A stretch of 64,000 bases of DNA from Anaerolineae bacterium (GTDB lineage Bacteria; Chloroflexota; Anaerolineae; B4-G1; SLSP01): assembly GCA_034437735.1 (NCBI GenBank), contig DAOTTS010000093.1, forward strand, positions 27,705 to 91,704. The letters are read 5' to 3'. Made by a program: the position numbers and the translations under genes. Below the pieces are notes generated by a model. That model saw only the letters and a program-made list of their open reading frames with translations, searched no databases and was not told the origin of the DNA. Below, piece by piece: positions 22,701 through 49,232 of the stretch (within the stretch, counting starts at the first letter, position 1; each line of letters begins with the position of its first letter).

Positions 22701-25700
22701 CTACGAGCTGGGCAAAGTCACCTGATAGATCGTGCTGTAGGTATCCTGATAGACGACCTCCAACACCCCTTGTTGAACCAGTGCTACGAATTTTGCCTCA
22801 GCCTCTGGGATCATATAGGCGCGCTCGTACGGAGTAACAATCACATAGGAGACGTCGTAGTCATCAAGGATCTCAGCGGCCTCCACCGGGGATGACCCAT
22901 TGTAGAAATAGCGGACGTCCTGCATTCGTGATTCAACGGTCCCCGCCGGCATAGCACCGCGTTGCTGGACTTGATGCCAACGCCAGGCCGCGACCGTCGG
23001 TAATCCTGTATAAACGCTAATCCGACTCCCCCAGAGATACTCGCGGGCACCGACTGCCTCCATGATCACGGGGCTCCCCTGGACATTCTCCTGGAGCCAA
23101 CGGATTACCTGATAGTCCGCCCAGAGCGAAATATCACTGCCATGCTCGTATTGAGTTGCATATGCCATAAAAACCATGCCGTCGAGTGTGGGAGGCGCTT
23201 CCGCAGCCCATCGATCCTGTGTCTTCGCCGGGATCGCCAAGGCGGGATAAAGACCGGTCCCCAGGATAAGAAGCGACATCACGATCACAGCGACCTCTTC
23301 GACACCCACGCGCTCTGTCTTTCCACCGGTCCAACGGTGAATCATGCGCTCGACAAAGACAGCAGCGCTCAGGCCTAATAACGTCCAGACCTGATACTGA
23401 AACTTAAACACGGTGTTCATCCGTCCAATGTCACCCTGAAGCACGACAATCTCTACCATCAGACTCAAAGCAAGCGCGGAACCGACCCAAATCCACAGGA
23501 GTCTGCGCCTTTGGTTGCGTGGCGAAACGACTTGCAAGGCAGCAAAGAGCCCTAATGGGACGACAATCCATCCGATGGGAGCTTTGAATAATGCAACGGG
23601 CACACTCAAACCCAGCAGCAAGAGGGCTACCGTCACGGCGACGATCCGCCATAATTGAGGTCGATTCTCAGGTGTCTCAAAGTAGGCGAGCCATCGCAGC
23701 CCCTCATGCCACACGCCATAGATGAGCGGAACAAGAAACTGCCCCAGCATCAGGAAGAATACCCCCAAAGGCGTGCGCGTACCCTTCCAAAGCTCAAACG
23801 TCGTATAGGTCACGATATAGTTAGCGACAAAAGGTCGGAATAACAATTCCGCCCCCAAAAACAAGAGAATGGGCGTGATCAGTAAGCGCCCCACCCACGC
23901 CAATGCGGTGGTTAAGGTTACGCGCCGTTCCGAAGAGGCTCCCGTGTCCACCCGAGCAGGAGGTGATAACGTCAAAGTGGGAGCCACTCCGAGAAGAGAA
24001 CCAAACGTCATCAGCACCAGGTACGTGGGATAGTCCCAGGTATTGGTCGCGCGCAAGGCACCGGCGACCAGCACAGCAAGCCCTAGACTACTCACCGGCC
24101 TGGGAAAGAACCGTTTCCACCCCGTGCTCTTCAACCGAACCGTGCCCAGCCCCCATTGCAGGGCGATGGCAAGCGCAACGTACGTCAGCGGCAGCGCCAT
24201 CATGTGCGCGTGAAGATCCGCATAGAGGAAAGTAAACGCTGGGAACTCATTGATCGCCCCGACCTCTCCCTCGGCAAACGGAATCAACCGCGTCGCATCC
24301 CAATACCACCATTCCGGTCGGAAGTTGAGTCCATGTCCCTCGATGACGACCTTCCAAAGGCCGACGAGTGCCGACACAACCTCGGGATATCCAGGAATCA
24401 AGCTCTCAAACTCGATACCGCCCACATCGACAAAGCCCTCAAAAATCAGCTGCGCTTCCCCAAGATTGCCGAGAATCACAATCAGGACCACGCCCCAGAG
24501 CCCGGCGCGTATCGATCGCCGGTCGCCCCCACCGGCAAGATTCGAAGCGACCGTATAGGCCCCCAGTCCTGTCATAGCCAAGAGCGAAGGCACCGCCAGA
24601 TTATAAGCAATGCTGGGAACAATCCCCAGTAACTCGGTCAATCCACCAAATAGGACGAAGCCGAAGTAATAGTAATTCATTTGGCCGCCGGCAAACCAGG
24701 GATCATAGGGTGGAAACCACGTAGACTTCATCACCGCATTGAAATAAGCGAAGTCCATTGGTTTCTCGCCGCCGCTCACCGGATGCCAAAGATCAGGATT
24801 GAGGTAACGCACCCCCACCCAGGCAAGATAGAGGCCCAAGAAGATGAGCTCGATCCACAGGATCTCGCGCCATCGCGAGCGGATAAAACGCACAAACTGC
24901 CGGCGGTTAAGCCAGAGGATAGTGCCACTGACCCCCAAACCCAGGAAGAGAAGACCCGCCAGTGTCGAGCGCACGCTGGGAACGATGTGGAGACTGGCCA
25001 AAAGCCACCCGACGTAGGCCCACACGAGCAGCCCTACCACTTTGGCCAACCCATAACCCCGCACTCGGAGGGCTGGCAGCATAGCATAGAGCCAGGGAAA
25101 AGCCATCCACCCAAGTACCAGCAAGAGCCCCCACCACAGCAGGACGGACAAGGCCGAGAACCGGTTATGGAGGGCCTCTGTGTTGAAGAGGTCAGACCAG
25201 GTACCGCCGGTCGCTTGTTCAATCTGAAGCTTAGGATCCAAAAGAAGGGAATCAGCCTTTGACTCAACATCCCCAAGAATGCGATTCCGTGTCGCTTCCC
25301 GAGGCGTCATCCACTGGACATCCTCCAGAAGCGAAGGAGGCAGCTGAGCCTCGGCGAGTTCGCGTGAGTACGTGGGAGTTTTCGCAAAGATTAGCACCGT
25401 CGGATGATCGTAGACGCTAAAAGCCTCTTCAGCCAGCGGAAAAGGCACTGAGGACTTGGCCTTGTTACTGTACTTCGCATTGACAAGATGAAAGGGTATT
25501 TCCTGATCCGGGAATTGCAGAGGCCCTAAGGAAGGATAGGAGACAAACTCAGCCCGGAGTTCATAGCCCAGATCCCCGCTGAACAAGGCTCGGTAATAAG
25601 CCGTGGTCAGGGGATACCGCATCGGCAGCCGTGGAATTGAGGCGTAGAGCCGGTTAGAGGAAAGCGCGATGAAGTCAGCCTCATCGAGCCAGTCAAGGAG

Positions 25701-27719
25701 ATACTGTCGCTTCTCCTCGGTATCGTTGTCATAATTATTCATCTGACCGGTAGGACTTGAGCTCAGATCCTGATACCAATTCCAGAACGGATCCTTGCCA
25801 TCGATCCGCAAAGGCAAAGGATCGTCCCAATGTTCGTTAGCAATCACGGACGTGCGCAGCGTCACGGCTTGGCCCCGCAGGAGAGAGAGTTCGACCTTGG
25901 CATATTCGCCGGCAGAGACCCTCACCGGCGGGTCGAACGTCATCCGAAGCGATCGAACATTGGGATCGTTGAAATTCAGGGAAGCGACCGCAGGCTGCCC
26001 ATTGACCGTAACTTCGATTTCACGAGGGCCGGGCACCCCCTTGGGATCGATCTTATTGACCTGCGCGGCCTCTACCCAGACAGTATCCGCTACCTCAACG
26101 CCCCCACCCACCCCAGACGTCACGACGGAGAGTTCCGTATTTGGCCTTATGGGTATCTGCAACTGATCTTTGGTCATCAGATCCAGCGTGACCGAGGTCG
26201 GGATATTGTCGTACATCCAGCGCGAAGCCTTCACCCGGGTAACGGGCTTCAGATAAATATGCAAGAATGCCCAGGCCCATAAAGCCGTCGTCAGAAAAAT
26301 CAGAGCCGGCAAAACACAAAGGACGTAACGCCCATAGGTTCTCCACCGCGCTTTCGCCACTGTTCCACGCGCGCCAACCCGAGACCCCCATGCCAGCTCA
26401 AGTAGCAGCACGGCGGCAAAAAGCGCAAAGAACGGATAGACCGGCAGCAGATAACGCATTGATTTGACCCACTGGGTCGATTGGTAAAGAAAGAACCCCG
26501 TACTCCAAAGCCACGGAATGAGAATGCGATGGGGAAGTGTGCGCCGGACAGAATCGGTCCACATTTTAACCAAGCGCCAGCCTAACCATGCCCACCCGAT
26601 GCAGGCCGTCACGCCTAGGGGTAATCCCATTCCCCAGAAGACCATATTGCGCAGCGGGAAGAGGATCGGGGCTCTTGCCGTCCACTGATGCCCATAAGGC
26701 ACATCCTGCAACCCACTCATCAGCCTACGAATATCCTTGATCGTCGCAATCCACTGAAGGTTAGGACTGACACCAAAGAAACCGGGGCCCATAAAAGCAT
26801 AAGGCTGTGCGATCCGAAACGCGAGAGCGGCGACAATACCGCTACCTATCAGCAAGAGTATCCGACGTAACGATAATCGGAAATGCGGACCTTCTCCAGA
26901 ATCAAAATGCATAACGCCCGTCAACCCGACGATAAGCGAAAGTGGCCACACGCTGATCTTCGAAGCAACCGCTAGGCCGGTCATAAGACCGGCGAGAAGA
27001 ATCAACCCACCAGGTTTGCGCTTGCCCGCAGCCAAAACGCACAGCAAGAGCGTCCATACCACAAAGACCGTCGCAAAACTATCGACAACAAAGAAATGGG
27101 CGTGCTGAATGGGGAGCACGGCAAACGCATAAAGCCCACCGGCTAGAAGAGAGAGCCGATTGCCAAAGAGAGAGCGGGCCAGCAGGATCAATCCCAACAA
27201 CGCAGCCACATCAGCCAGCGCAGAAAGGCCCCGACCTACGTGATGAATACCGGCGTATCCGGTGTAGGTGCCCGGCAAGCAAGCACCCGCATCTGCCGGC
27301 GTTTGACCACACAACACAGCATCGGTCCAGCGCCCCACCGCTCGGGTGACGAAGATCGGCAGCGTCCCATAGACGTAATTCACAAACTGATCGTAATTCA
27401 TAGGATTGATGGGGGAATCAGCGGTATCCCAGTAGAGACGCAAGCAGGCACCGAAATCCTCACAAATCGGCGCCCCGCTCTCTGCCTTCGCCTCACCGGG
27501 AAAGCGAAGCGTCCCTGCAACCATCGTGAGGTAACGCTCGTCCGGGTGCAGGTGGGTCCCCTCCCCCCAATCCAGGTTGACAAAACGGACGAGAGCGCCA
27601 AGGACCAGCAGAACCACCAGGGCCAATCGATAGCGAACTTGTCGATTCGGTCCTTGAGGAGTACTCATTGATTGAGGATGCCTAAACGGAGATTCTGTTA
27701 TCAAATGTTGTTCGGTCAT
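22701..27719 (-). CDS. Very large (1,672 aa) polytopic membrane protein, GT-C superfamily-like (PMT/ArnT-like N-terminal module plus additional TM modules)
   Basis: The first loop reads VRFVNLDWGEGTHLHPDERYLTMV (a DE motif after TM1, as in GT39/GT83). More than 25 TM helices are predicted. The C-terminal domain is soluble. Confidence 0.7.
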   Translation of the reverse strand: MTEQHLITESPFRHPQSMSTPQGPNRQVRYRLALVVLLVLGALVRFVNLDWGEGTHLHPDERYLTMVAGTLRFPGEAKAESGAPICEDFGACLRLYWDTADSPINPMNYDQFVNYVYGTLPIFVTRAVGRWTDAVLCGQTPADAGACLPGTYTGYAGIHHVGRGLSALADVAALLGLILLARSLFGNRLSLLAGGLYAFAVLPIQHAHFFVVDSFATVFVVWTLLLCVLAAGKRKPGGLILLAGLMTGLAVASKISVWPLSLIVGLTGVMHFDSGEGPHFRLSLRRILLLIGSGIVAALAFRIAQPYAFMGPGFFGVSPNLQWIATIKDIRRLMSGLQDVPYGHQWTARAPILFPLRNMVFWGMGLPLGVTACIGWAWLGWRLVKMWTDSVRRTLPHRILIPWLWSTGFFLYQSTQWVKSMRYLLPVYPFFALFAAVLLLELAWGSRVGARGTVAKARWRTYGRYVLCVLPALIFLTTALWAWAFLHIYLKPVTRVKASRWMYDNIPTSVTLDLMTKDQLQIPIRPNTELSVVTSGVGGGVEVADTVWVEAAQVNKIDPKGVPGPREIEVTVNGQPAVASLNFNDPNVRSLRMTFDPPVRVSAGEYAKVELSLLRGQAVTLRTSVIANEHWDDPLPLRIDGKDPFWNWYQDLSSSPTGQMNNYDNDTEEKRQYLLDWLDEADFIALSSNRLYASIPRLPMRYPLTTAYYRALFSGDLGYELRAEFVSYPSLGPLQFPDQEIPFHLVNAKYSNKAKSSVPFPLAEEAFSVYDHPTVLIFAKTPTYSRELAEAQLPPSLLEDVQWMTPREATRNRILGDVESKADSLLLDPKLQIEQATGGTWSDLFNTEALHNRFSALSVLLWWGLLLVLGWMAFPWLYAMLPALRVRGYGLAKVVGLLVWAYVGWLLASLHIVPSVRSTLAGLLFLGLGVSGTILWLNRRQFVRFIRSRWREILWIELIFLGLYLAWVGVRYLNPDLWHPVSGGEKPMDFAYFNAVMKSTWFPPYDPWFAGGQMNYYYFGFVLFGGLTELLGIVPSIAYNLAVPSLLAMTGLGAYTVASNLAGGGDRRSIRAGLWGVVLIVILGNLGEAQLIFEGFVDVGGIEFESLIPGYPEVVSALVGLWKVVIEGHGLNFRPEWWYWDATRLIPFAEGEVGAINEFPAFTFLYADLHAHMMALPLTYVALAIALQWGLGTVRLKSTGWKRFFPRPVSSLGLAVLVAGALRATNTWDYPTYLVLMTFGSLLGVAPTLTLSPPARVDTGASSERRVTLTTALAWVGRLLITPILLFLGAELLFRPFVANYIVTYTTFELWKGTRTPLGVFFLMLGQFLVPLIYGVWHEGLRWLAYFETPENRPQLWRIVAVTVALLLLGLSVPVALFKAPIGWIVVPLGLFAALQVVSPRNQRRRLLWIWVGSALALSLMVEIVVLQGDIGRMNTVFKFQYQVWTLLGLSAAVFVERMIHRWTGGKTERVGVEEVAVIVMSLLILGTGLYPALAIPAKTQDRWAAEAPPTLDGMVFMAYATQYEHGSDISLWADYQVIRWLQENVQGSPVIMEAVGAREYLWGSRISVYTGLPTVAAWRWHQVQQRGAMPAGTVESRMQDVRYFYNGSSPVEAAEILDDYDVSYVIVTPYERAYMIPEAEAKFVALVQQGVLEVVYQDTYSTIYQVTLPSS

Positions 27720-29368: not shown

Positions 29369-30868
29369 TTACACCTTCGCGCTTTCCTCGTGGAGCTGCT
29401 TAGCCCTTTTGTAGAGGTCCACGTAAGCTTGAGCTGCCATCTTCCATGAGAAATCACGCTTCATCACCCGAGTTTGAAGAGCCGACCATCGCTGGGTTTG
29501 TCGGTGATCAAAGGCACGCGCTAGCACATCAGCCAGCGCTTCCGGGGTGAATGAGTCAAAACCGAATCCCGTGCCGCGTTCCGGTTGCCGAACGACATCG
29601 ATCACGACATCGCGCAGCCCTCCGGTCCGCCGAACAATTGGAACAGCACCGTATCGCATCGCGATCATAACACTCGTACTAGCAGCCTCTTCACGACTGG
29701 GCATTAGGAAAAAATCAGATCCACCATATAGACGGCGTGCCAAACGGTCATCGAAGCGATTGACAAATCGAATGTAAGGGGGATAGCGCTTTTGGAAAGC
29801 CCGCAAATCCTGAGCGTGTTCCTCGCCCCCCGTGCCAAGGAGAACAAACTGATACGTCCGCGATCGCATAAGCGTTTCCAGTGCCGGCACAAGCAACTCA
29901 ATCCCTTTGATCGGATCAAGCCGCGTTACCATACTGACGAGCGGGACATCACGATCCGTGGGTAACTGCAACTCACGCTGCAGCGCCGTTTTGTTGACCT
30001 CCCGCATATGGAGCGATGCAACATCAAAGGACTGCGCCAAAGCCGAATCGGTCGCGGGGTTCCATAGATCAGTATCAATACCGCTCAACACGCCGAAAAG
30101 CCGATCCTCGCGATCGCGCAAAATACTGCTAAGCTGACCACCGACTTCCGGCGTCGTGATCTCCTCCGCATAGGTTGGACTCAACGTACTTAGGAGATCA
30201 GAATGAGCGATACCTTGAGCCAACCAATTAACTTTGCCGGGATTCTCCACCTCAAGGTGTGGAATCTGTCCCATTCGGCCAAAATCCAGGATCAATCGCC
30301 CACACACCCCTTGGTAAGCTAAACTATGAATCGTCATCAAGGTTGCAATCTCGCCGAAGGGTTCGTGATCTCGACCGTAGATATCGATCCAAGTCGGAAT
30401 CGGGCACGTATGCCAATCGTTCACATGAATGATGTCAGGACGCCACGTCATATGAGAAACAGCCGAAATGACGGCCCGAGAGAAGAACACAAACCGCTGT
30501 GGGTCATCGTTAAACCCATAGACGTGCTCTCGATGTCCGAAGTACCGATCGTTATAAATCATATAGACCGGGACCTGCTGAGAATCAATCTCAAGTAAGT
30601 GAACGCGCTCATCCTTCGAACCCAACGGAACGGGAAAGGACATCTTAACCTTCGATTTTTGGCCCGAAGGGCTCTCATAGCGAGGAAGCATAAGCCGTAC
30701 GTCCGCACCTAGCTTCTTGAGCTCACCAGGGAGAGAACCCGCAAAATCAGCTAAGCCACCGACTTTTGAGAATGGCGTTGCCTCTGTGACGACAAATAGA
30801 ACCTTCAGTTTAGCATTCATACTTCCACCCACGAATCTCTTTGTCGGACCCCACATAGACGTGACCAA
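29369..30868 (-). CDS. glgA: Glycogen synthase (GT5, GlgA)
   Basis: It reads KVLFVVTEATPFSKVGGLADFAGSLP and has a C-terminal GT-B fold. The probable true start is the ATG at 30820 (MNAKLKVLFV). Confidence 0.9.
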   Translation of the reverse strand: MVTSMWGPTKRFVGGSMNAKLKVLFVVTEATPFSKVGGLADFAGSLPGELKKLGADVRLMLPRYESPSGQKSKVKMSFPVPLGSKDERVHLLEIDSQQVPVYMIYNDRYFGHREHVYGFNDDPQRFVFFSRAVISAVSHMTWRPDIIHVNDWHTCPIPTWIDIYGRDHEPFGEIATLMTIHSLAYQGVCGRLILDFGRMGQIPHLEVENPGKVNWLAQGIAHSDLLSTLSPTYAEEITTPEVGGQLSSILRDREDRLFGVLSGIDTDLWNPATDSALAQSFDVASLHMREVNKTALQRELQLPTDRDVPLVSMVTRLDPIKGIELLVPALETLMRSRTYQFVLLGTGGEEHAQDLRAFQKRYPPYIRFVNRFDDRLARRLYGGSDFFLMPSREEAASTSVMIAMRYGAVPIVRRTGGLRDVVIDVVRQPERGTGFGFDSFTPEALADVLARAFDHRQTQRWSALQTRVMKRDFSWKMAAQAYVDLYKRAKQLHEESAKV

Positions 30869-31037
30869 CGCTCAAACAGCACAAAGCTATTATAGCGGAA
30901 TACGACCGGACGGCAATTTGGCACAACAAAAAACCCATGCTATGATCCGAGAAGGTCGGGGTCGAATAGGCCCATTTGATTTCCTTGCGTGTCTCAAAGC
31001 TGAGCCAGCTACTCTCTATGTTATGAAGGAGTTGCGT

Positions 31038-34000
31038 ATGGTGATGAACGCTCACGCACGGGACCGACAACGCACGCCCCCTCATCGAAGACCGTCACGT
31101 GCTTACCTCAAACCGCTTGGTTCCCCTTACATTATCGTTTCCTATCTGTTAGGTTTGCTAGCCCTCGGATTCTGCATAGAGGGGTTAAGACCAACGAACC
31201 ATCATCAGTCAATTCAAGCTGCACGCACAAAGAGCCAAACATTCAGCAGGGCGTCGAGTGCCCCTAGCGTCATCGTCAACGAAGTCGCCTGGGGAGGCAC
31301 CGAGGCCAGTGCTTTCGATGAATGGATTGAGCTTTACAATGTCACCGGAAAACCCCAATCTCTGGAAGGTTGGACGCTTGTTGCGAGTGACGGAAGCCCC
31401 GACATCCAGCTATCCGGTGAAATCCCGGCGTACGGATACTTCGTGATCGAGCGAACGGATGATGACACGATTCGCGACCGTCCAGCCGAACTGATAACCT
31501 CCTTCGGATCGGGCCTCAACAACAACGGCGAACAGCTGAACTTGATCGATCCCGCCGGCGATTTGATCGATACCGCCAATGGTAACGGAGGACCCTGGCC
31601 TAATGAAGATACCGGCGCATCCCCTACGTATCGGTCAATGGAACGTATCGATCCTAGGGCCATGGACCTGGACACACATTGGCAGAGTAACGACAGGAGC
31701 TTGACCTGCGGACAGGACGCCGATGGCAACCCCCTCAATGGCACCCCGGGTGCGATCAATGCGGCCTATTACCCATACTTCTCTCAGCACTCGGATCTTG
31801 CGATAGCCTCTGACTTCCCGGCGATGGTTCAAGCCGGCGACCGTATAACTGCTTATATCGATCTCCTAAATCGAGGTGGGCTTACCGCAACCCAGGTTAC
31901 ACTCACGGCGAGCCTACCGCCGAGCATCCATTACGAAGCTCAAAAGAGCGAGCGCTTTACCTTCAACGTGGCCGATCCCCAAACGCTTATCTGGCATCGA
32001 GCTCACCTGCATCCCGACACAGTCAATCCCTGCCGAATCACCCTGACCTTGCGTATGTCTCCTGCGCTTACTATTGGAACCAAGATGATGACCCGCTTAT
32101 CCGTGACTACGACCTCACCCGAGCTAAGAAACGATAATAACATCATGACGGCCAGCACCACAATTCAGGGCGTATCAGCGGATCTTATCCTAACCAAGAC
32201 GGGTATGACCGAGATCAAAGTCTTGAATCCACCCGAACTGTTCACTTATCACCTGAGCATCCATAATCGAGGGCCCGATGTCGCTTCTGGCGTATGGATC
32301 ACCGATCGGCTACCGGGAAATCTCAGGCTTTTCACGCAAACGAGTCCATTCTCTTTCACCTGGAATCGGACACTCTTGACGTGGCACGTGGGAGACTTAA
32401 GTCCCGATACAACCTATCCGATCACGCTGACGACCACATTCAACGATGGCTTGACCGAGTCTCTTACTAACCGAGCTGGCGCCAAGGCAGCAACGCCGGA
32501 TCCAGAGCCGGCCAACAACCAAGCGACCTGGAGAACCCAAGCCATCCCTACAGTACTCATATCCAGTGTGCTTTACGACGGCTACGCGTACCGGGATGCT
32601 GATGAAGCGGTCGGCATCACAAATATGGGCCCCCACCCTCTCTCGCTTCGTGATTGGGAACTCTGCAAAGATCGCTCAGGGCTTATCGATTGTGAACCTC
32701 TCCCCGCTATCACCGTAACCGAATCATCAGAAGCATGGATAACCAAGGACGCAGAGGCCTTTGCCGAGACGTTTGGATTCGCTCCTAAGGCCCAAATGGA
32801 GAACTGGCTGGGGCTGACGAACACAGGAGATGAAGCCCTATTGCGGAATCCAGACCATCAATGGGTGGATACGCTCGTCTACGGTGCCGGCACGTCGACC
32901 GTGCCCGGTTGGTCAGGGGATTCGGTAAAAGCTTACTATAACTTCCTCCGGGGGGAAACCGGGCAAATTCTCCATCGCATATCTGATGAACGGACCGGAT
33001 TGCCGGCTTACGACACCGACACGTGTCAAGATTGGATCCAGACCCCCGAAGACGCTGGAAACGGACGGCGAGTTCTATATCCAGGGTGGGATATGACGCC
33101 CCTCTTTTTCCCCCTATCCACAACAGAAACAGCCTCCACAACCCTGGCCATTGCGCCGGATCACGGATTCGAGTTCCTCAAAGACAGCCTGGAACGGGCA
33201 AACCACACGATCTTCATCGAGGTTTACACGCTGCGTCATCCCGACTTGATTGCGACATTGGCAGCAAAGGCCGCCGAGGGGGTTGAGGTCAAGGTGTTAC
33301 TGGAAGGATCTCCCGTTGGACTCGGCGTAAACTCACCCGAATGGCAGACTGAGTTACATGCATGTGGCGAAATCGAAGCGCACGGAGGCGAAGCCTGGTT
33401 TATGATTCACCGGCCTGAGGACCGCATTTATAATCGTTACAGCCATCTTCACCCCAAAATGATCATCATCGATGAAGAATGGCTGATCCTCAGTACCCAG
33501 AACCTCACGTATAGCAGCCTACCATCCGACGATAAACGGGATGGGACGGCAGGCACCCGAGGCGCTATCATCATAACTAACGCCCCTTCGGTCGTCCAAC
33601 GCGCGACAGAGATTATGACTCTTGACCTCGACCCGCAGAATCACGCCGACCTTCTCAGATGGAATCAGGGCTATTGGGAGACTTACGGTCCCGCCAACCC
33701 ACACGCCGTCGATCTATCCACGCCAAATTGGATCAGCTATACGCCCAAATTCACGGCCCCACTCAAGATAGCGGGAGACGTGCACTTTGAGCTCTTCACG
33801 GCACCGGAAGCCGCCTTACGCCAAACGGATGCGCTCCTAGGTTTGATCAGACAGGCCGGCTCGGGAGACAGCATCGATATTGAGCAGACGTATGAACACG
33901 TAGCGTGGGGAGAGGATCCCATCCTGGAGCCGAATCTTCGCCTACAAGCTTATCTGGAGGCCGCACATCGAGGCGCTCACGTGCGCATTCTGCTGAATGG

Positions 34001-34907
34001 CCAAGGGTTTATACCGGATTACGATCACCCCCCTGAGGAAAACCTTGAAACCGTTGCCTACGTCAAACAACAAGCGAGGGTCTATGGTTTGAATATGGAG
34101 GCTGCCGTGGGAAACCCGACGGGATTGGGAATTCACAACAAGATGGTGCTTGTCGATCTCGGGGAGGGACAGCAGTACGTACACCTAGGCTCGATCAACG
34201 GCAGTGAAACCTCAAGCAAGGTCAACCGTGAAATTGCGATCCAACTCCGGTCGGATGAGGCACACGCGTACTACTTGGCTATGTTCGAATATGACTGGTG
34301 GTCCTCCCACCCTATCTACCTACCGATCGTTACGCGAAATTACCAGCCCCCCGCCCCTCCAGTAGATCATCTGGTCATCAGCGAAGTCTATTATGCCGGC
34401 CCCGCCGACGCGGAGTGGGTCGAAATCTTCAATCCGACGGACAAACGCATAGACCTATCCGCCTATAGACTTGGCGATGCCGAGGCCCCCGACGTCTACG
34501 AATCTATGTTTCACTACCCGCCCGGGGTCACACTCGAACCGGAGGCGGTGCTGGTCATTGCCGTAAACGGCTTACAAACACCGGAGGCCGATCTGGAGTT
34601 CTACGAACATGCACCAGACGTACCGAATATGATCCCTGATCCTGACTGGGGAGATACACGTTATCCTTTTGCCTTGAGGAATCTTGGGGATCAGGTACTG
34701 CTGCTTGGGTCGAATAACAAGCCTGTGGACGTCGTGATCTGGGGCGATGCCAAATACCCCTATGTAAGTGCGCATCCGGGTGTGATCAATATGGCCGCAT
34801 CGCTCAGTCGCCAACCGGCTATCTATGACACCGACAACTGTGGGAAGGACTTTGTTGAAACTTATCCCTCAACGCCCGGAGAAATCCCGAAACTCTCCCA
34901 TCCGTAG
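31038..34907 (+). CDS. Large secreted/membrane-anchored protein: lamin-tail domain (LTD), DUF11-like beta repeats, a phospholipase D/nuclease domain with two HKD motifs, and a C-terminal LTD
   Basis: It has an RBS aaggag and an ATG at 31038; the ORF is open from 30717. A signal anchor reads IIVSYLLGLLALGF. LTDs read VIVNEVAWGG...EWIELYN and VISEVYYAG...EWVEIFN. The HKD motifs are HPKMIIIDEEWLILSTQN and HNKMVLVD...GSINGS. Confidence 0.75.
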   Translation: MVMNAHARDRQRTPPHRRPSRAYLKPLGSPYIIVSYLLGLLALGFCIEGLRPTNHHQSIQAARTKSQTFSRASSAPSVIVNEVAWGGTEASAFDEWIELYNVTGKPQSLEGWTLVASDGSPDIQLSGEIPAYGYFVIERTDDDTIRDRPAELITSFGSGLNNNGEQLNLIDPAGDLIDTANGNGGPWPNEDTGASPTYRSMERIDPRAMDLDTHWQSNDRSLTCGQDADGNPLNGTPGAINAAYYPYFSQHSDLAIASDFPAMVQAGDRITAYIDLLNRGGLTATQVTLTASLPPSIHYEAQKSERFTFNVADPQTLIWHRAHLHPDTVNPCRITLTLRMSPALTIGTKMMTRLSVTTTSPELRNDNNIMTASTTIQGVSADLILTKTGMTEIKVLNPPELFTYHLSIHNRGPDVASGVWITDRLPGNLRLFTQTSPFSFTWNRTLLTWHVGDLSPDTTYPITLTTTFNDGLTESLTNRAGAKAATPDPEPANNQATWRTQAIPTVLISSVLYDGYAYRDADEAVGITNMGPHPLSLRDWELCKDRSGLIDCEPLPAITVTESSEAWITKDAEAFAETFGFAPKAQMENWLGLTNTGDEALLRNPDHQWVDTLVYGAGTSTVPGWSGDSVKAYYNFLRGETGQILHRISDERTGLPAYDTDTCQDWIQTPEDAGNGRRVLYPGWDMTPLFFPLSTTETASTTLAIAPDHGFEFLKDSLERANHTIFIEVYTLRHPDLIATLAAKAAEGVEVKVLLEGSPVGLGVNSPEWQTELHACGEIEAHGGEAWFMIHRPEDRIYNRYSHLHPKMIIIDEEWLILSTQNLTYSSLPSDDKRDGTAGTRGAIIITNAPSVVQRATEIMTLDLDPQNHADLLRWNQGYWETYGPANPHAVDLSTPNWISYTPKFTAPLKIAGDVHFELFTAPEAALRQTDALLGLIRQAGSGDSIDIEQTYEHVAWGEDPILEPNLRLQAYLEAAHRGAHVRILLNGQGFIPDYDHPPEENLETVAYVKQQARVYGLNMEAAVGNPTGLGIHNKMVLVDLGEGQQYVHLGSINGSETSSKVNREIAIQLRSDEAHAYYLAMFEYDWWSSHPIYLPIVTRNYQPPAPPVDHLVISEVYYAGPADAEWVEIFNPTDKRIDLSAYRLGDAEAPDVYESMFHYPPGVTLEPEAVLVIAVNGLQTPEADLEFYEHAPDVPNMIPDPDWGDTRYPFALRNLGDQVLLLGSNNKPVDVVIWGDAKYPYVSAHPGVINMAASLSRQPAIYDTDNCGKDFVETYPSTPGEIPKLSHP

Positions 34908-37880: not shown

Positions 37881-40800
37881 TTACTCACAGGGTAGGACCT
37901 CTATAGTCACAGCTTCGGTTCCGCCCCACACTTCTGGAAAATAAAGTTCGGAAACTGTCGCCGGGAGACTATGATAGGTCCCCGGAAACTTAGCTCGCAT
38001 CCAATACCGTGCCTGATATGTCCCTGGTGAAAGCTGACGCGCGAAAAAGTCAGCCTGGCTTTCGTGATACTCTCTACGTTCAAAGGGATCTAACCACTCA
38101 ACCGGTCCAGAATCAAGGGCGCCACCTACCCCCACTCCCTCTGCTTGATCTAGCAGCCCATTATTCACCGCACGAGCCGATCGAATAGCAAATCCAACAT
38201 CCGATTCCCTATACTGGATCGGCACGAATCCAGCAGGGAATAAATCCCGGACCCGTACATAATGACGTGTTGCAGGAATCACCACCGTTAACCGTACTTC
38301 GATGATATCCCCAACCGCCACCTTCTCTGTTTGCAAACATTCCGTAGCAACAGGCACGTGAAGAGTCTCTGAGCCTAGTATCTCTTGACGCGACATCTGA
38401 CAATATTGCCGATTGATACTCATCCCTCGGCTCTGGGATGATACCTCATCTATGGGCTGAAAGAGATGCAGGCTTGAGGCATAAAACAAACCACCGCTCC
38501 CAGACTTTCGAGTGAGAGATAGCAAATTGATGCCGTGCCGAAGCTCTTCTCCCAACGGAAGATCGAACGTCAATCCGGCTCCCAGCCTATCCTCACGCGT
38601 AGAGGAATCGTCCAAAAGAGAATGACCGTTGAGGGAGACATCGAAATCAAACGTACCCGTCGCAGAATCGTATTCTGCCATATACGTCGCTAATGAGGTG
38701 CTTGCCCACGCAGTCTCATAGACTGTGGGCCAACGGTCTAAGCGTCGAGCGCTCATAAGCCATCTGACAGCCTGAGGGAGGAGAGGGTCATCCGGTGATA
38801 AAACGGTGAGTGCCTCAACCGCTAAAGCCGTCACCTGGATATCCGTGGACCAGTGCTGACTATCAACATCCTCCCAATGTGCCCCCGTTGCAGTTATCCT
38901 GGCCTCAGATTGCAGATCTCCCAGCAACATGGCAACGCGAGGATCTGAGGGATCGACTGCGCCCAGCGCCAGCGCCAGATGAAAACGACCGGCTACCCCC
39001 AGGGCTTGGCGATCTCGATAAAGAATTGTTGCTGCCCCTGAAGGCCAAGGGCGATCCGCCTGAGAGAGCACCCGAATGGACAAAGCAAAATGAGGATAAC
39101 GCGAATCTGTTTGCAGGGCGCGCGTCATCATGGTCTCGATATAGTCCAGAGACCGGTCGATAACCCGGTCGGAGATGGGAAATCCTGCCGATCTAGCCCG
39201 AAGCAGGGTCATCGCCACATAACTTGTCATATGCAAGTTACTCCAGTCTCGCCACCACCCCCACCCCCCATCGGGATTCTGTCTCATCTGGATGCATTCA
39301 AGGGCTTCCGTGACCAGCGCCTCCATCTCTTTGACGTCCGCTTGTACCGACACATCCTGCATCTCCACTGCCTGTAAAGTAGCCAGCGACGTGAGTACCC
39401 AACTAGTCACGGCATCTGTGGCCCCATAGCTCGGCTGAGTGAGAAGTCCTTCCATCTGATCAATCAGACCAGAGGTAAGTGAAGTCTCAACGCTGAGTCT
39501 CAGTGCACTCGACATCGTCGCATTCATCGGGACGTGAAAAACTTCAATCCTCTCACCCGCTTCTCTTAAGACACCAGACGCGCCCTTGACATCGGGCATA
39601 TCCCACCGGTGAATAGGAATCGGATCGTCAAGGGTCATAACATCACGATAATCGCCCGCTTCAGCAGAGAAACTCAGCGTAGCAGAGGGCAACGAATCCT
39701 GGGACGCGTTCAAGGCCCAAAGAACCGGCATGCGCCCCATAGCCGGCACGACCACTTCTTGCACCAAGTTGCCCTCTACCGCAACCCCCTGAGCCTCAAT
39801 AGTCACTAGAGCGGTGAAATCTGAGGGCGTCCTGTTATGAACCACCGCCACAATCTCGGTTCGGTCCCCCACGACCAAGAATTCGGGGACCACGGGTTGT
39901 ACTGAAAGAGGTTGACGAACCTCAATTTCACGCTCAGTAACTCCTATCTCAGTCTCTTTTGTCGCTGCGGTCGCTCGCACCCGCCAAGTTGTTAAAGAAT
40001 CCGGGAGCTTCACCGATACCTCAACTTGACCATCTGGACCAGTTCTCAAAGCAGAATCCCAAAACGCCGTATCTGGGAAGTCCTGACGGATTCCAGGTAC
40101 TGTGGGCACTGTATCTCCTCCCCCAAGACCGGCTGGACCCTCCGAAAAAGCATAACCACTGGACGCTTCTATCTCCTCGCCCCATCGATTCATTAAAACG
40201 AGCAAAGTGTGACCTGACGAAACAGAAAGAGGATGCTCGCCATAGAAAGCTTCAACGATGGTTTGAGCCTCTGGCCCCCGTTTCAAGTCAAGTATCGCCT
40301 TATCTACGATCGAAAGGCTCACTTCGGCATCCACAGGCTGCCCCTCGTGATCGGAGGTTCGAACGGTCAACCGAGCTTCCTCACCGGGGCTGTACGTATC
40401 AAGATCCCCTTCAATTGAGACATCTAACAGATATTGAGACGGACTGACAGACACGTTAACGTAGCCAGCGCGCACATCGGGTCCCTGCTCGTCGGTCGCC
40501 GGGCGCACAGCTAATGCCGATACGTAAACGTTAGGCGCGTAGGCTTCCTCAATGGGTAGTTCAATGACAGGGTTAGGCTGATCGAAGACGAATCTCTTCA
40601 CCTTCAGCAAACTATCACGCTCCACGGTGAGCAACAATTGATAAGTCCCGGTAAAAGGAACCGGCACTAGGATTTGAGCACTCTCACCCACGTCGTAGAC
40701 CTGTGCGTCAGGCTTAAGAGCCATAACATCAGAGGTTGGATGCCACCCAAAGGAATCATCTCCGCTTACCCAGAGGGTCGTTTCCACAGCCACATCGTGC

Positions 40801-43800
40801 CCTTGTGCATCCTCGCTCTCCAACCTGACCACATAGTTCCCACTCCTCGGTGGGTTGAACACAGCAAGCGCATCACCATCAGCATCAGTCGTCAAAGTCG
40901 TTTCGGAGACAATCGAATCAATCGCTCGCCCAGGCGTGTTCTCACCATCATCAGATGCCCATGTTCTTCTGACTAACATCGCCGTGATTTCACGCTCCGG
41001 CAAAGGTTCGCCATCCCAATCGACAGCCCGAACCTCGATCTCAACACGTTCACGAGCGCGAACCATCCGTGCTTTCGGTCGAAGTCCAAGATACAGGTCA
41101 GCTTGATGAACAATCGCCTTACCAACAGCCGCAACGGGATCAGAAACGGGCAACTGAGACCTATCTGTCACTCGAACGTTCAAAGTCCACCTCTGGGACT
41201 CAACACTCTCGGAATCGCCCAAAGGGGTCAAGTCTGCCGGGAACTCCAAGAGGAGTCCCCCTGATTCATCAAGCGTACTTTTGCCTTGAGTAATCACCTT
41301 AGAAGACGCCCCAAAGGAATGACTATTCCACTGCCATCCCAGCTTGGACAATCGTTCAGACTCTCCCATGGCATAAGGAGCTGCCCTGAGCTCCCAATCA
41401 ACGGACCCATTTGAGAGACTCCCACCAGAGAAGTAGTCAGCCGCCACATGAAACTGCACGACCTCACCTTGACGGATATGCATAACATCAGGGAATACAT
41501 CCACTTGGAACGGCGACTTATGATATGCCTCAATGCTGACCCGCTTTGAGCCCCCGCCCATCCTCAAGGTTGCACGGTCACTGTTCTGTGAGTGAATCGA
41601 GGCATTGAGAACATATTCGCCTAATGCGATCATCTCTTCCAGATGGATCGAACCCGAGAAACTGCCAAACTCCGACAACGTAAGGGTTTCAGAATAGATC
41701 GGTCGCATATCGATAGTTTGCAGCGTTACGTCCACCTGAGTCTCTGCTCCCGGCACTTGATATGTACCTTCATACCCCTCACGCACCAACCCGTGGAAGT
41801 GCAACGTTTGCTCTGGTCGATAGAGCTCCCGATCCGTCTCCAGGAAAATACGAGAGGCTGGCGAGAGACCAGGGGCAAAATTGAGGCCGAACTCCCACGG
41901 AGAGGCCTCGCCAGACCAACCGGTCATTGCAATTCCGAAACCTGGTTCGCCGGCGGCCCCAATCACCGCGGCCACACGATTCCAGAGATTATCAACGGGG
42001 CTGATCGGGATTCTTGCCAAGCCTTCGTCATCCGTAGTTCCACCGGCAATGAGCAATCCTTGGTTGTCGATTAACCGCACCGCCGTACGCGTGATAGGCG
42101 ATCCGCTCTCCAAATCCGTGACCCAAACAACAGCCTCATCCCGCGTCAACTTAATGGAGATGTGACGATCGACAACGGCAATACCTAATCGACGAGGCCC
42201 GTAGTTTTGTCCCGGGATTTGCCACTCAAGCCCGTATAATCCAGTAGGAAGTGCACCACGCAATCTACGTAAGTACAGAGGAACGAGTTGACTCTGGTTG
42301 GGCGATAGATCGAAATCCTCAACCCATTCCCGCAATACGTCTCCCTCAGCGGAGGAATCCTGCCTGATAAACGTCGATTCGTCATATTGGCTGAGGACGA
42401 ACGAGATATCATCGGCATTCCTAGCCCCCAGATAAAGAACCGAGGGCTCGTCAGCGTTCATCGCCACCATGTCAGCAGCCATAGGCAGTTCTAAACGCAC
42501 AGGAAGATCTCCCGTGACGAAACATAAAGTTGTGGATTCTTCCAATGTATGCCCATAGATGTCGGAGACGCCGGATAAAACCTCAACACAATACTCTGTG
42601 CGAGGTTGGCGTTCCCATTGAAGGGTATATACGTTCGATATCTTATCGTAATATGTGTACAGACGCTCATCTTCAGGTTCGGGATCGATCTTTACATTAT
42701 CAGCCAGGGTCTTTTCATCGATGGCACCTGCAAAGTTGAGTTGGACAGGTCGGTTAAGTCCAACCAAAGTTTCGTTGTCATCCGGCGTATATCGAACGAG
42801 TTGGGGTTCGGAAACCGTATGAAAGGACCACATGCGCGGATTCTCCAAAGGCGCGCTGGTCCGCGCACGAGCTCGCGGACTCACCTGCACCGTGTAATCT
42901 GAATCCAGAACGAGCCTATCTGTCGGTGTGAATATCAACACAGCGCCATTATCACGCCAGCGAATCGTACCTGGGACAATGCGCTCGTCTTCGCTGACAA
43001 GATTGAATTCGCGTCCGGTGATTGCCTGATCCATAGGTGTGTTGAACGTAACACTAATGGCCGACGCCAAACGCACCTGTGCAAATCCAGACTCCGGAAA
43101 AACCGTCGTTATCCGGGGAGGAGCGGTTTCAAACGACCAATTAAAAGTTTCCTGAAGAACAGCCCCGCTTAGGCTTGCAACGCCTGAGGATAACGTAACG
43201 TTATAGCGCTCGCCGGCGCCCCACCCTGAGATGGGAGTGAAACGATAGAGCGAGGTATTCACCCACTCAGCTCGCCCCAGAACGGAAGGAGAGAACGTCA
43301 AGGGTAACTCAAGACACTCACCATCAGCTTGAACATACTCACCAACACAATGAATGGGAACAACGGGATGATTGAAAGCCAAGAGGATGTCTGTATCCCC
43401 GCGTAAATCAGAAGCACCATCTGGAGGATTGATTTGGGTAACGAGTAGCGGAGATACAGTGGAAAAAGCAAAGTTATACTCATCACCCATTTGAAGCCCA
43501 TCTTTTGATTGAGCAGCTGGGCCAAGCGACACTTGATAACGGGTTTGAGGATTCAAGCTCTCAGGATAAAATACCAATTCGGAGGTGTCGTCCCAGGCAA
43601 ACGCCCCCTCAACCTCTGGATAGAGGCTGAACGATTGGACGACACTCTCCTTATCCATAGGTTGATCAAAGACAAGCCGGATCTGGGTCGTCGTCGAGAC
43701 CACTTCACCTCGCCGAGGTTCAAAGTCTAGCACAAACGGGGGATACGGATCCGTGATTACAAAAGGCGTCGAAGTCGGAGGTAAGGTAGTTTCTGTCGGG

Positions 43801-43931
43801 GCAAGCGTCTCAGTCGCAGCCTCTGGCTGCGACGTTGCTCGAGTGGGTGATGTAGGTGTAGAAGTCTGACAGCCGGCCAAAATCACCACTAGGATGCAGA
43901 TGGCCAGTCCGATGAAACTGCGCTTATGCAT
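37881..43931 (-). CDS. Alpha-2-macroglobulin family lipoprotein (2,016 aa), thioester-less
   Basis: It has a lipoprotein signal (ILAGCQT). N-terminal SbsA-Ig-like repeats carry the P.V..F.P motif, followed by MG domains. An alpha/alpha-toroid TED region reads QNPDGGWGWW. At the thioester position GLLTQPSYGATDAV replaces the CGEQ thioester motif. Confidence 0.85.
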   Translation of the reverse strand: MHKRSFIGLAICILVVILAGCQTSTPTSPTRATSQPEAATETLAPTETTLPPTSTPFVITDPYPPFVLDFEPRRGEVVSTTTQIRLVFDQPMDKESVVQSFSLYPEVEGAFAWDDTSELVFYPESLNPQTRYQVSLGPAAQSKDGLQMGDEYNFAFSTVSPLLVTQINPPDGASDLRGDTDILLAFNHPVVPIHCVGEYVQADGECLELPLTFSPSVLGRAEWVNTSLYRFTPISGWGAGERYNVTLSSGVASLSGAVLQETFNWSFETAPPRITTVFPESGFAQVRLASAISVTFNTPMDQAITGREFNLVSEDERIVPGTIRWRDNGAVLIFTPTDRLVLDSDYTVQVSPRARARTSAPLENPRMWSFHTVSEPQLVRYTPDDNETLVGLNRPVQLNFAGAIDEKTLADNVKIDPEPEDERLYTYYDKISNVYTLQWERQPRTEYCVEVLSGVSDIYGHTLEESTTLCFVTGDLPVRLELPMAADMVAMNADEPSVLYLGARNADDISFVLSQYDESTFIRQDSSAEGDVLREWVEDFDLSPNQSQLVPLYLRRLRGALPTGLYGLEWQIPGQNYGPRRLGIAVVDRHISIKLTRDEAVVWVTDLESGSPITRTAVRLIDNQGLLIAGGTTDDEGLARIPISPVDNLWNRVAAVIGAAGEPGFGIAMTGWSGEASPWEFGLNFAPGLSPASRIFLETDRELYRPEQTLHFHGLVREGYEGTYQVPGAETQVDVTLQTIDMRPIYSETLTLSEFGSFSGSIHLEEMIALGEYVLNASIHSQNSDRATLRMGGGSKRVSIEAYHKSPFQVDVFPDVMHIRQGEVVQFHVAADYFSGGSLSNGSVDWELRAAPYAMGESERLSKLGWQWNSHSFGASSKVITQGKSTLDESGGLLLEFPADLTPLGDSESVESQRWTLNVRVTDRSQLPVSDPVAAVGKAIVHQADLYLGLRPKARMVRARERVEIEVRAVDWDGEPLPEREITAMLVRRTWASDDGENTPGRAIDSIVSETTLTTDADGDALAVFNPPRSGNYVVRLESEDAQGHDVAVETTLWVSGDDSFGWHPTSDVMALKPDAQVYDVGESAQILVPVPFTGTYQLLLTVERDSLLKVKRFVFDQPNPVIELPIEEAYAPNVYVSALAVRPATDEQGPDVRAGYVNVSVSPSQYLLDVSIEGDLDTYSPGEEARLTVRTSDHEGQPVDAEVSLSIVDKAILDLKRGPEAQTIVEAFYGEHPLSVSSGHTLLVLMNRWGEEIEASSGYAFSEGPAGLGGGDTVPTVPGIRQDFPDTAFWDSALRTGPDGQVEVSVKLPDSLTTWRVRATAATKETEIGVTEREIEVRQPLSVQPVVPEFLVVGDRTEIVAVVHNRTPSDFTALVTIEAQGVAVEGNLVQEVVVPAMGRMPVLWALNASQDSLPSATLSFSAEAGDYRDVMTLDDPIPIHRWDMPDVKGASGVLREAGERIEVFHVPMNATMSSALRLSVETSLTSGLIDQMEGLLTQPSYGATDAVTSWVLTSLATLQAVEMQDVSVQADVKEMEALVTEALECIQMRQNPDGGWGWWRDWSNLHMTSYVAMTLLRARSAGFPISDRVIDRSLDYIETMMTRALQTDSRYPHFALSIRVLSQADRPWPSGAATILYRDRQALGVAGRFHLALALGAVDPSDPRVAMLLGDLQSEARITATGAHWEDVDSQHWSTDIQVTALAVEALTVLSPDDPLLPQAVRWLMSARRLDRWPTVYETAWASTSLATYMAEYDSATGTFDFDVSLNGHSLLDDSSTREDRLGAGLTFDLPLGEELRHGINLLSLTRKSGSGGLFYASSLHLFQPIDEVSSQSRGMSINRQYCQMSRQEILGSETLHVPVATECLQTEKVAVGDIIEVRLTVVIPATRHYVRVRDLFPAGFVPIQYRESDVGFAIRSARAVNNGLLDQAEGVGVGGALDSGPVEWLDPFERREYHESQADFFARQLSPGTYQARYWMRAKFPGTYHSLPATVSELYFPEVWGGTEAVTIEVLPCE

Positions 43932-46196: not shown

Positions 46197-46760
46197 TCAA
46201 TCCTCGTCACCAGGCGTATTCTTGTGAATGTGGACTTTGAGCTGCATAGTTCCAAATGTTAGTACATCTCCGTCACGAAATGCATAGGGAAGGTAAGGGG
46301 TCACCCGCTCCTCGTTCAGGAATGTTCCATTCGTGCTATCTAGGTCCTCCACGAAACAAGTGCCATCCCGAGTGTAAATACGGGCATGGCGTCTCGAGAC
46401 ACCTTGCTCTAGGCCGCCGTCCGTTGTCATATCAAGTTCCGGGAAAATCCCATGGGCTGCATCAAGTCGACCCACAAGGATTTCTCGATCTGCAGATAAA
46501 AGTATCTTCCGGCCCGTATTCAAAACATCAACCTCGATATTGATCGAACGGTTCTTCGCGTCTTCCCCTTCCCCATCCTGTCTCGGTCGAGCGGGTCGTT
46601 CATCCTCCTGATCGGGAAGAGGTTCGGTACGTAGAGGGCCACCCGAGGGCAGATAAGTTCCACACTGAACACAGAAAAGTGTACCGGGCAAATTATCAGC
46701 CCCGCACGATGGACACACTACCTTGCTATCCTTTTGAGTCATCGTTACCTCCCTTATCAA
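46197..46760 (-). CDS. Zinc-ribbon / FHA-domain protein
   Basis: The zinc ribbon reads CPSCGADN...CVQCG. The FHA region reads ILVGR...GVSRRHARIY...DLDSTNGTFLN. Its start overlaps the upstream stop as ATGA. Confidence 0.8.
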   Translation of the reverse strand: MIREVTMTQKDSKVVCPSCGADNLPGTLFCVQCGTYLPSGGPLRTEPLPDQEDERPARPRQDGEGEDAKNRSINIEVDVLNTGRKILLSADREILVGRLDAAHGIFPELDMTTDGGLEQGVSRRHARIYTRDGTCFVEDLDSTNGTFLNEERVTPYLPYAFRDGDVLTFGTMQLKVHIHKNTPGDED

Positions 46761-48220: not shown

Positions 48221-48242
48221 AATAGGTTAGGCTTTCGAGAAT

Positions 48243-49232
48243 CTACAAATCAGACAAATTCACTTGTGTATAAATCACAGTCACATTGTCGTTGCCGCCG
48301 GCTTCATTGGCAGCTTCGACAAGCCGCAGACATGCTTCTTGGGGATCCTGCGGATCAGAAAGTATGCGCCAGATCGATGACTCCTCCATCATATTCCATA
48401 ATCCATCGCTGCACAATAACAACCGATCCCCATCTTGAAGCGCATTAGTCGTAACATCCACCTCAAGCCCATCGGTTTGACCGATAGCCCGGTAGAGCAC
48501 ATTTCTTTGCGGATGAACGAGTGCTTCTTCTTTAGAGATCTGTCCCATCTCAATAAGTCGATTTACAAAAGAGTGATCGCGGGTTAAGCGCTCAGGTGAT
48601 GACCCATTCCGCAGTAAATAGGCTCGACTGTCCCCTACGTGCCCGATAAATAGCCGACTACCAAGAACCAATCCATAGGTCAGAGTGCTCCCACTACCCG
48701 GCAACTCACGAGCAACAGCCCGGTTAGCCCGCGAAACAGCATCTCTAACCACATCAGTAAGCGAGGGTTGATCCGCCCCCCGTTCCGAGCCCAACAGCAT
48801 CGGCAAGTATATGGTCGAAATCAAATGACTGGCAGAGATCCTAAGCGCTAACGAGCTGGCCATCTCCCCCTTCTGATGCCCTCCCATACCATCCGCAACC
48901 ATGAAAAGGCCAAAAGGAGGAAGGGGTTGACCACTATCATTAGCATCATGCTGACCCGTAAAGACTAACAAAGCGTCCTCATTTTGCCCGCGGACACTCC
49001 CTACGTCGGTCAACCATCCTGATTGAAAGACCTGAGTATGCCGGAAACTCACCTGATTCGTCGATGCATGGCCGACATTCGCGGCTTCTTCTGCCTTATT
49101 GTCTTGGGGGGACGGCTCTGGTCCTACCTCAAGTTTCGACACCGGGTCTTGGGATAATGCTTCCGCCTCTTTGGCAGACGCCTCTTGATTCTTTCCGAAA
49201 AAACCACTCACCCATTCACGAATCGATGCCAT
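48243..49232 (-). CDS. PP2C-family Ser/Thr protein phosphatase
   Basis: It has the motifs GQNEDALLV, FMVADGMGGHQKGEMAS and LCSDGLW, and ends in GGNDNVTV. Confidence 0.85.
   Translation of the reverse strand: MASIREWVSGFFGKNQEASAKEAEALSQDPVSKLEVGPEPSPQDNKAEEAANVGHASTNQVSFRHTQVFQSGWLTDVGSVRGQNEDALLVFTGQHDANDSGQPLPPFGLFMVADGMGGHQKGEMASSLALRISASHLISTIYLPMLLGSERGADQPSLTDVVRDAVSRANRAVARELPGSGSTLTYGLVLGSRLFIGHVGDSRAYLLRNGSSPERLTRDHSFVNRLIEMGQISKEEALVHPQRNVLYRAIGQTDGLEVDVTTNALQDGDRLLLCSDGLWNMMEESSIWRILSDPQDPQEACLRLVEAANEAGGNDNVTVIYTQVNLSDL

Follow-up and report, generated by a model that had tools for sequence, protein, structure and literature searches.

An exported lamin-tail and phospholipase D-superfamily protein of an Anaerolineae bacterium, probably a cell-surface phosphodiesterase

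Domain architecture of the protein

The gene described here lies on a 64,000-nt stretch of DNA from an Anaerolineae bacterium (assembly GCA_034437735.1, contig DAOTTS010000093.1, positions 27,705 to 91,704, forward strand). This stretch is referred to as the window, and all positions are counted from its first letter. The gene, called the LTD-PLD gene, encodes a 1289-aa protein that combines lamin-tail domains (LTDs), DUF11 domains and a catalytic core with two HKD motifs of the phospholipase D (PLD) superfamily. Judged from its sequence, the product is probably a metal-independent phosphodiesterase of the cell surface, and probably a nuclease. When the whole protein was compared with Pfam, LTD was matched in three stretches (E 8.9e-37), PLDc_2 in two (4.4e-26) and DUF11 in two (1.2e-24). 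Domain borders were set by piece-wise Pfam scans and by reading of the sequence. From the N- to the C-terminus, the order was a basic tail, a hydrophobic segment, LTD1, DUF11/CLIPPER domains 1 and 2, LTD2, PLD lobes 1 and 2, and LTD3 (Table 1). A preliminary description of this DNA had proposed LTDs at both ends, a DUF11-like region and a two-HKD core. These domain types were all recovered and LTD1 and LTD3 were found at the ends; however, the internal LTD2 adjoining the PLD core had been missed, and the protein has three LTDs rather than two.

Conservation was followed in an alignment of 55 homologues with 36-78% identity to the core. The LTD1 motif VIVNEVAWGGT...DEWIELYN was nearly invariant in the family. 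LTD2 scanned alone reached 29 bits (PF00932, E 1.2e-6), under the 34.3-bit cut-off. It was all-beta in the structural model with a predicted local distance difference test score (pLDDT) above 90, and its counterpart in homologues was called LTD. The model of LTD2, core and LTD3 together (aa 495-1260) had a pLDDT of 92.3 and a predicted template modelling score (pTM) of 0.77. Because pLDDT exceeded 90 at the junction of LTD2 with the core and fell below 50 in the linker between core and LTD3 (about aa 1095-1105), LTD2 would be packed on the PLD core and LTD3 tethered to it.

The DUF11 domain has recently been renamed CLIPPER; it was shown to build the stalks of surface proteins and to contain an isopeptide bond (PMC12617251). 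In the second CLIPPER domain of the protein, the Lys-to-Asn spacing (+91) was the same as in the solved CLIPPER structure 9IFR (K715/N806), pointing to a putative isopeptide bond. The protein thus resembled the CLIPPER stalks of fibrillar adhesins in having two such domains, one of them with a Lys/Asp/Asn triad spaced as in 9IFR. It differed from them in having only two repeats, the first without the triad, and in carrying an enzyme as cargo instead of an adhesive tip.

Table 1. Features of the LTD-PLD gene and of the region upstream of it, with positions in the window
Feature	Position	Strand	Description
Promoter-like site, glgA	30889..30916	-	TTGCCG-16 nt-TATAAT; back-to-back with the + strand site
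Promoter-like site, LTD-PLD gene	30918..30946	+	TTGGCA-17 nt-TG-TATGAT; score 10/12, extended -10
Ribosome-binding site GAAGGAG	31025..31031	+	6 nt before ATG 31038; AAGGAG and ATG kept in L001
LTD-PLD coding sequence	31038..34907	+	1289 aa, 142 kDa, stop codon TAG; 100%-identical database protein P0001
N-terminal export/anchor region	31038..31190	+	Basic tail aa 1-27 (7 Arg/Lys), then hydrophobic segment aa 27-51
Lamin-tail domain 1	31251..31574	+	aa 72-179; PF00932 E 1.9e-13, 51 bits
DUF11/CLIPPER domain 1	31785..32171	+	aa ~250-378; isopeptide triad lost (S258/A292/R353)
DUF11/CLIPPER domain 2	32181..32528	+	aa 382-497 (best Pfam stretch); Lys387/Asp423/Asn478 triad kept
Lamin-tail domain 2	32538..33032	+	Pfam aa 501-616, fold to ~aa 665; directly adjoins PLD core
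PLD lobe 1	33180..33530	+	aa 715-831, PLDc_2 E 4.2e-14; HKD motif 1 HPKMIIID at 33450-33473
PLD lobe 2	33867..34298	+	aa 944-1087, PLDc_2 E 3.2e-12; HKD motif 2 HNKMVLVD at 34134-34157
Lamin-tail domain 3	34356..34745	+	aa 1107-1236, PF00932 E 3.9e-15; low-confidence linker to core

Catalytic core

The core belongs to the PLD (HKD) superfamily. Both HxK(x)4D motifs, on which the preliminary description had staked its assignment, were present, at aa 805-812 and 1033-1040. Among the 55 aligned sequences, H805, K807, D812, N822, H1033, K1035, S1052, N1054 and the run N1063-R1064-E1065 were invariant. The Asp of motif 2, present in the protein itself, was kept in just 23 of 120 homologues and was replaced by varied residues in the others. 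Downstream of motif 2, the pattern GSxNG..E.S.K.NRE was invariant among homologues despite the variable Asp. Since His, Lys and Asn of both motifs were conserved throughout, the alignment argues for an active enzyme and not a pseudo-enzyme. Members of the PLD superfamily work by a two-step phosphohistidine mechanism that is independent of metal.

The model of the core (aa 666-1105) showed a bilobed alpha/beta PLD fold with a pLDDT of 92.4 and a pTM of 0.91. Its best fold matches were SpPLD of Serratia plymuthica (7e0m), PLD4 and vaccinia F13, and the compact two-HKD fold was closest to that of PLD3 and PLD4. After a gap came Pseudomonas aeruginosa PldA (score 25.4), phosphatidylserine synthase (25.0) and the Moritella and Streptomyces PLDs (about 23). 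Lower scores were obtained with PLD2 (22.1) and plant PLD (21.7); the single-lobe proteins Nuc, NucT and Zucchini scored 16-20 against half of the query. Foldseek likewise ranked PLD3 and PLD4 first, with E-values that did not separate the classes.

Export and anchoring

Export by the Sec pathway was well supported by the N-terminal sequence, in which the hydrophobic segment that follows the basic tail is the only one in the whole protein. A hydrophobic segment preceded the first LTD in 111 of 120 homologues, many of which had the classical shape of a signal peptide, and none of the 120 had a C-terminal anchor. On reading of the sequence, neither a lipobox nor an RRxFLK Tat motif was seen, and both types of signal were rejected; nor did an AxA site come after the segment. 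As the hydrophobic stretch is not followed by a cleavage motif, a signal-anchor with display at the surface appears more likely than release. The protein had been described as secreted beforehand; the export signal agrees with this, but membrane anchoring is the likelier outcome. Chloroflexota are generally regarded as monoderm, and with such an envelope an N-terminally anchored, stalked protein would extend through the wall to the outside.

Relatives among characterized enzymes

No match in the PDB was obtained with a single-sequence phmmer search; matches came only from the family profile. Whole-domain alignments of the profile were found only with NucT (3e-10), Nuc (5e-9), Zucchini and SpPLD, and those with Nuc and NucT spanned 110-120 residues of lobe 1. 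For human and plant PLDs, the match was limited to about 28-40 residues around the HKD motif. The PLD4 chains were matched at the HKD motif only, with E-values of 0.33-0.49 that were not significant. The top NCBIfam matches were DrmC (33.2 bits against a 133-bit cut-off) and then NucT (21.9 against 351), ahead of the cardiolipin synthase models Cls and ClsB (18.3 against 290 and 10.4 against 281). All of these scores were far under the curated cut-offs, showing that the protein belongs to none of these families. PF00614, the model of the PLD active-site motif, reached 15.9 bits against a cut-off of 21.9.

The proteins nearest in fold are distant in sequence. PLD3 and PLD4 (mammalian lysosomal 5'-3' exonucleases of single-stranded nucleic acid), SpPLD and F13 had 13-17% sequence identity to the protein and, unlike it, contain neither LTD nor CLIPPER domains. 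For SpPLD, its authors emphasize loops resembling those of nucleases together with a positive patch, and raise the question of a nuclease activity; the available part of their report gives no substrate for the enzyme (PMC8004604). Nuc of pKM101 and NucT of Helicobacter pylori, both exported, metal-independent nucleases, have the HxK...GSxN chemistry in common with the protein. However, they carry one HKD motif per chain of about 155-180 aa and form homodimers, whereas in the protein two lobes are fused in one chain.

In overall layout, the closest parallels were ExeM/NucH-type LTD nucleases and LTD-tagged enzymes of the DNase I family, which likewise have an N-terminal export signal, at least one LTD and a phosphodiesterase that works outside the cell. 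Their catalytic domain is of the EEP or DNase I type and depends on metal; the protein has instead a PLD core, three LTDs and a CLIPPER stalk, and Pfam matched no EEP domain in it. ExeM from which the LTD has been deleted degrades DNA more slowly in vitro (PMC6085458). Other enzymes that carry LTDs are members of the DNase I family (PMC4486849) and a nuclease of Izemoplasmatales (PMC8289736).

Family and distribution

The database search returned 391 homologues at E <= 1e-5, most of them 1100-1250 aa long with the same set of Pfam domains. Many covered 94-100% of the protein at 34-69% identity with the domains in the same order, LTD-CLIPPER-LTD-PLD-LTD. They were labeled "lamin tail domain-containing protein", "DUF11 domain-containing protein", "uncharacterized repeat protein (TIGR01451)" or, by automatic transfer, "cardiolipin synthase". 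Species-representative genomes yielded 47 confirmed loci, almost all of them in metagenome-assembled genomes (MAGs) of Chloroflexota; the hosts were Anaerolineae, Promineifilaceae, Ardenticatenaceae, Thermoflexales, Roseilinea and Chloroflexia. The architecture is abundant and already annotated in databases, an exported phosphodiesterase with accessory domains is a familiar kind of protein, and the protein studied here is an ordinary member. A single archaeal locus (L049), in a Thermoplasmatales MAG, encoded a relative of the PLD core with 25% identity, which suggests that the LTD-PLD module either occurs outside Bacteria or was transferred.

With the PLD core alone as query, the search gave 1483 cluster representatives at E <= 1e-3, of which 209 reached E <= 1e-30. 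LTD and two PLDc_2 domains were found together in all 12 distant representatives that were scanned, in frameworks that varied among SLH, dockerin, PKD, Big_5, CARDB, CBM_4_9 and TSP3. Because the pair recurs in all twelve and in such different extracellular settings, LTD plus PLD is, on these sequences, a conserved extracellular module, of which the Chloroflexota architecture would be one elaboration. One relative from a JGI metagenome (P0208, 2322 aa) contained LTD, a two-HKD PLD core, CBM_4_9, an EEP nuclease domain and SLH repeats, that is, two phosphodiesterase folds on one wall-anchored polypeptide; its JGI label begins with "predicted extracellular". Three others of about 2000-2300 aa (P0228, P0234 and P0252) had four PLDc_2 domains, making two complete PLD cores, together with four LTDs and CARDB.

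Start site and divergent promoter region

The frame of the LTD-PLD gene is open from 30717 to 34907. The 5' region was aligned with that of L001, a syntenic relative with 69% protein identity. ATG 31038 and the AAGGAG before it were conserved in this alignment; the rest of the 321-nt open frame upstream was not. The upstream extension noted in the preliminary description is therefore real as an open frame but has no significance, being non-coding as judged from L001. A start at ATG 31023, given by one gene caller (1294 aa), was rejected since it was absent from the L001 alignment; NCBI gene calls for members of the 90% cluster of the protein were likewise 1289 aa. The gene does not overlap the 5' end of glgA, as had been thought: the start codon of glgA, which runs on the opposite strand, is ATG 30820, and the two divergent genes are separated by a 217-bp spacer.

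A stretch of the spacer some 60 bp long (roughly 30889-30948) was nearly identical to L001, and its flanks had diverged with large indels. This block carries two predicted sigma-70-like promoters placed back-to-back, one for glgA and one for the LTD-PLD gene. Sequence upstream of the + strand -35 hexamer would be kept because the promoter-like site of glgA sits there. A terminator-like hairpin in the 5' untranslated region (30959-30973) was discarded, as it was not conserved in L001. The Rfam scan found no RNA element near the gene, and the 3' spacer folded no better than shuffled sequence.

Genomic context and the phosphorus link

Upstream of the LTD-PLD gene lie glgA, a GH57 gene and a gene for a 1672-aa DUF2298/PMT_2 membrane protein; downstream lie an EamA transporter, a small open reading frame (ORF), a P-loop protein and a 2016-aa alpha-2-macroglobulin. 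The same order was found in L001 and was not shared by the Roseilinea locus or by another Anaerolineae locus. In a conserved-neighbor analysis of 51 loci, no neighbor family occurred in more than 7, indicating that the gene is a stand-alone unit. An apparent second cluster of neighbors turned out to be the antisense shadow ORF of the LTD-PLD gene itself. The 1672-aa protein (22701-27719, - strand) had a DUF2298 match (E 3e-105) and a PMT_2 glycosyltransferase-like region, and is syntenic with the LTD-PLD gene in L001. The alpha-2-macroglobulin (37881-43931, - strand) consisted of MG2, bait-region, A2M and bMG10 domains with four Big_5 repeats on the N-terminal side, and had a lipoprotein-like N-terminus (…LAGC).

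The preliminary description had connected the protein with phosphorus uptake through phnD, phnC and phnE. These genes are indeed in the window (14039-17401, - strand), separated from the LTD-PLD gene by about 13.6 kb and by seven unrelated genes, among them a radical-SAM gene, a methyltransferase and a PA14 protein. A search of the window for Pho boxes of the E. coli type, with up to 3 mismatches allowed, gave no match. To our knowledge, no Pho box has been defined for Chloroflexota. In the E. coli paradigm, PhoB-dependent promoters usually lack a good -35 hexamer, and the + strand promoter-like site of the LTD-PLD gene has one. Given the distance, the opposite strand, the lack of conserved neighbors in the 51 loci, the absence of an E. 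coli-type Pho box from the window and the good -35 hexamer, a phosphorus-scavenging link with phnDCE is not supported by the sequence context, though it is not disproved. The putative PhnE permease (14039-15556, - strand; 505 aa) was matched by BPD_transp_1 just once, at residues 329-496, which leaves its N-terminal two-thirds unassigned.

Substrate and proposed function

The most likely substrate is extracellular nucleic acid, a reading to which we give about an even chance. It was favored because the sequence neighbors are nucleases, the nearest folds are those of PLD3/PLD4, SpPLD and F13, LTDs recur on extracellular nucleases, and one relative is fused to an EEP domain. The preliminary description had left the choice between a cell-surface nuclease and a phospholipase; this was fair as far as the evidence allows, but Nuc and NucT, the SpPLD/PLD4/F13 folds and the EEP-bearing relative lean toward a nuclease.

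In the favored reading, the protein is exported by Sec and stays tied to the cell surface through its N-terminal hydrophobic segment, unless cleavage of that segment sets it free. Outward from the membrane would come LTD1, the two CLIPPER/DUF11 beta-sandwich domains as a stalk, and then a catalytic module in which LTD2 is packed against the compact, pseudo-dimeric two-HKD core and LTD3 is held on a flexible tether. Either H805 or H1033 would attack the phosphodiester, giving a phosphohistidine intermediate; the second His would protonate the leaving group, and water would resolve the intermediate, with no metal needed. DNA or RNA in matrix or necromass may be the substrate. The LTDs may serve as accessory domains that bind substrate or surface, as in other LTD-tagged extracellular nucleases, and the physiological role of the displayed enzyme may be nutrient or phosphorus foraging or matrix remodeling.

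Several observations weigh against a nuclease. The ectodomain and every LTD were acidic (pI 4.0-4.9), and the pI of the core was 4.3-6.7 across the family, unlike that of a simple electrostatic DNA binder; this argument is weakened by the equal acidity of other exported proteins in the window. Foldseek E-values of nucleases and lipases differed by no more than about 3 orders of magnitude. Neither a nucleotidase, a nucleoside transporter, a phosphatase nor pst/pho genes were conserved neighbors in the 51 loci. No relevant paper on an LTD-PLD fusion was found in the searchable literature, and the family is thus experimentally uncharacterized. Acinetobacter phospholipases D share the architecture of two PLDc_2 domains (PMC4574555), showing that the Pfam family does not discriminate between substrates.

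That last architecture, typical of bacterial PLDs, is one reason to consider a true extracellular phospholipase D that would take head groups off foreign membranes, vesicles or debris, with the LTDs targeting membranes, the role first proposed for bacterial LTDs. A proposal of membrane targeting by LTDs is attributed to Mans et al. in the ExeM paper (PMC6085458), and an acidic surface would be better matched to zwitterionic or cationic head groups than to DNA. However, PF00614 and, by far, the cardiolipin synthase and ClsB models stayed below their cut-offs, classic PLDs aligned just at the short HKD stretch, and one family member (P0208) is fused to an EEP nuclease; we consider a phospholipase unlikely. 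A slightly less probable alternative is a hydrolase of some other phosphodiester polymer, such as a teichoic-acid-like or phosphoglycan polymer of the wall or a polysaccharide phosphodiester of capsule or matrix; the enzyme would act in foraging or in remodeling of the cell's own envelope or sheath. The acidity of the protein would fit here too, as would the polysaccharide and cell-wall settings implied by CBM_4_9, dockerin and SLH in distant members, the envelope and glycan genes (DUF2298/PMT_2, GH57 and glgA) around the gene in its close clade, and a phylum-wide, stand-alone distribution such as a housekeeping envelope enzyme might have. Yet none of the solved PLD-superfamily structures that were matched is described as acting on such polymers, and synteny with glycan genes extended to at most 7 of the 51 loci. 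The long stalk sets the enzyme off the membrane without identifying its substrate.

Two further readings are very improbable. Some JGI labels imply a cytoplasmic or membrane lipid synthase for cardiolipin or phosphatidylserine; however, the NCBIfam cardiolipin synthase scores argue against it, the core lies more than 600 residues past the only hydrophobic segment, with LTD and CLIPPER domains of extracellular type in between, and relatives bear SLH, dockerin and PKD modules. The least probable is a PLD of defense or antagonism, either a nuclease like DrmC of DISARM or a toxin like Tle5/PldA. DrmC was the top NCBIfam match, but at 33 bits against a 133-bit cut-off; no drmA, drmB, methylase, immunity or secretion-system genes were found nearby or conserved, and the protein is Sec-exported with stalk domains of the adhesin type. 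A non-catalytic adhesin was also considered and failed the tests above.

A more specific and tentative proposal, which we regard as rather doubtful, is that the LTD-PLD module marks a distinct clade of extracellular PLD-superfamily enzymes (about 200 clusters at 50% identity, E <= 1e-30) that is the prokaryotic counterpart of the PLD3/PLD4 exonucleases, in Chloroflexota with an isopeptide-stabilized stalk and LTDs as nucleic-acid clamps, used in foraging for DNA or RNA. Sediments, sludge and hot-spring mats are rich in Anaerolineae and related Chloroflexota, whose use of dead biomass is poorly understood. Were this proposal true, the abundant filaments of sediment and sludge would have a metal-independent enzyme with which to forage for DNA and RNA outside the cell. 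A nuclease activity in itself would add a metal-independent PLD type to the known extracellular DNases (EEP, DNase I, SNase and EndA), would provide the first biochemical setting for testing what bacterial lamin-tail domains bind, and would connect a large clade of bacterial proteins with the compact structural group of PLD3, PLD4 and F13.

Other features of the window

A gene at 1374-2714 (- strand) gave a weak match to the CHU_C type IX secretion signal (29.6 bits against a cut-off of 27) with no single stretch passing; the match is probably spurious and would be unexpected in a Chloroflexota genome. The stretches 55586-56876 (+) and 54943-55134 (+) held TatC (E 1e-55), a 180-aa acidic protein before TatC and two tRNA genes just upstream. 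The N-terminus of the acidic protein looked TatA/B-like by eye, and its sole match was DUF948, below cut-off. A signaling cluster at 46197-51434 (- strand) comprised an FHA/zinc-ribbon protein, a DnaJ-VWA protein, a PP2C phosphatase and a Ser/Thr kinase fused to a PQQ-type beta-propeller. At 51825-53564 (+ strand), a pyridoxal phosphate-dependent (PALP) enzyme was fused to a C-terminal response-regulator receiver domain, an unusual fusion that was followed by a hybrid receiver-histidine kinase at 53589-54860.

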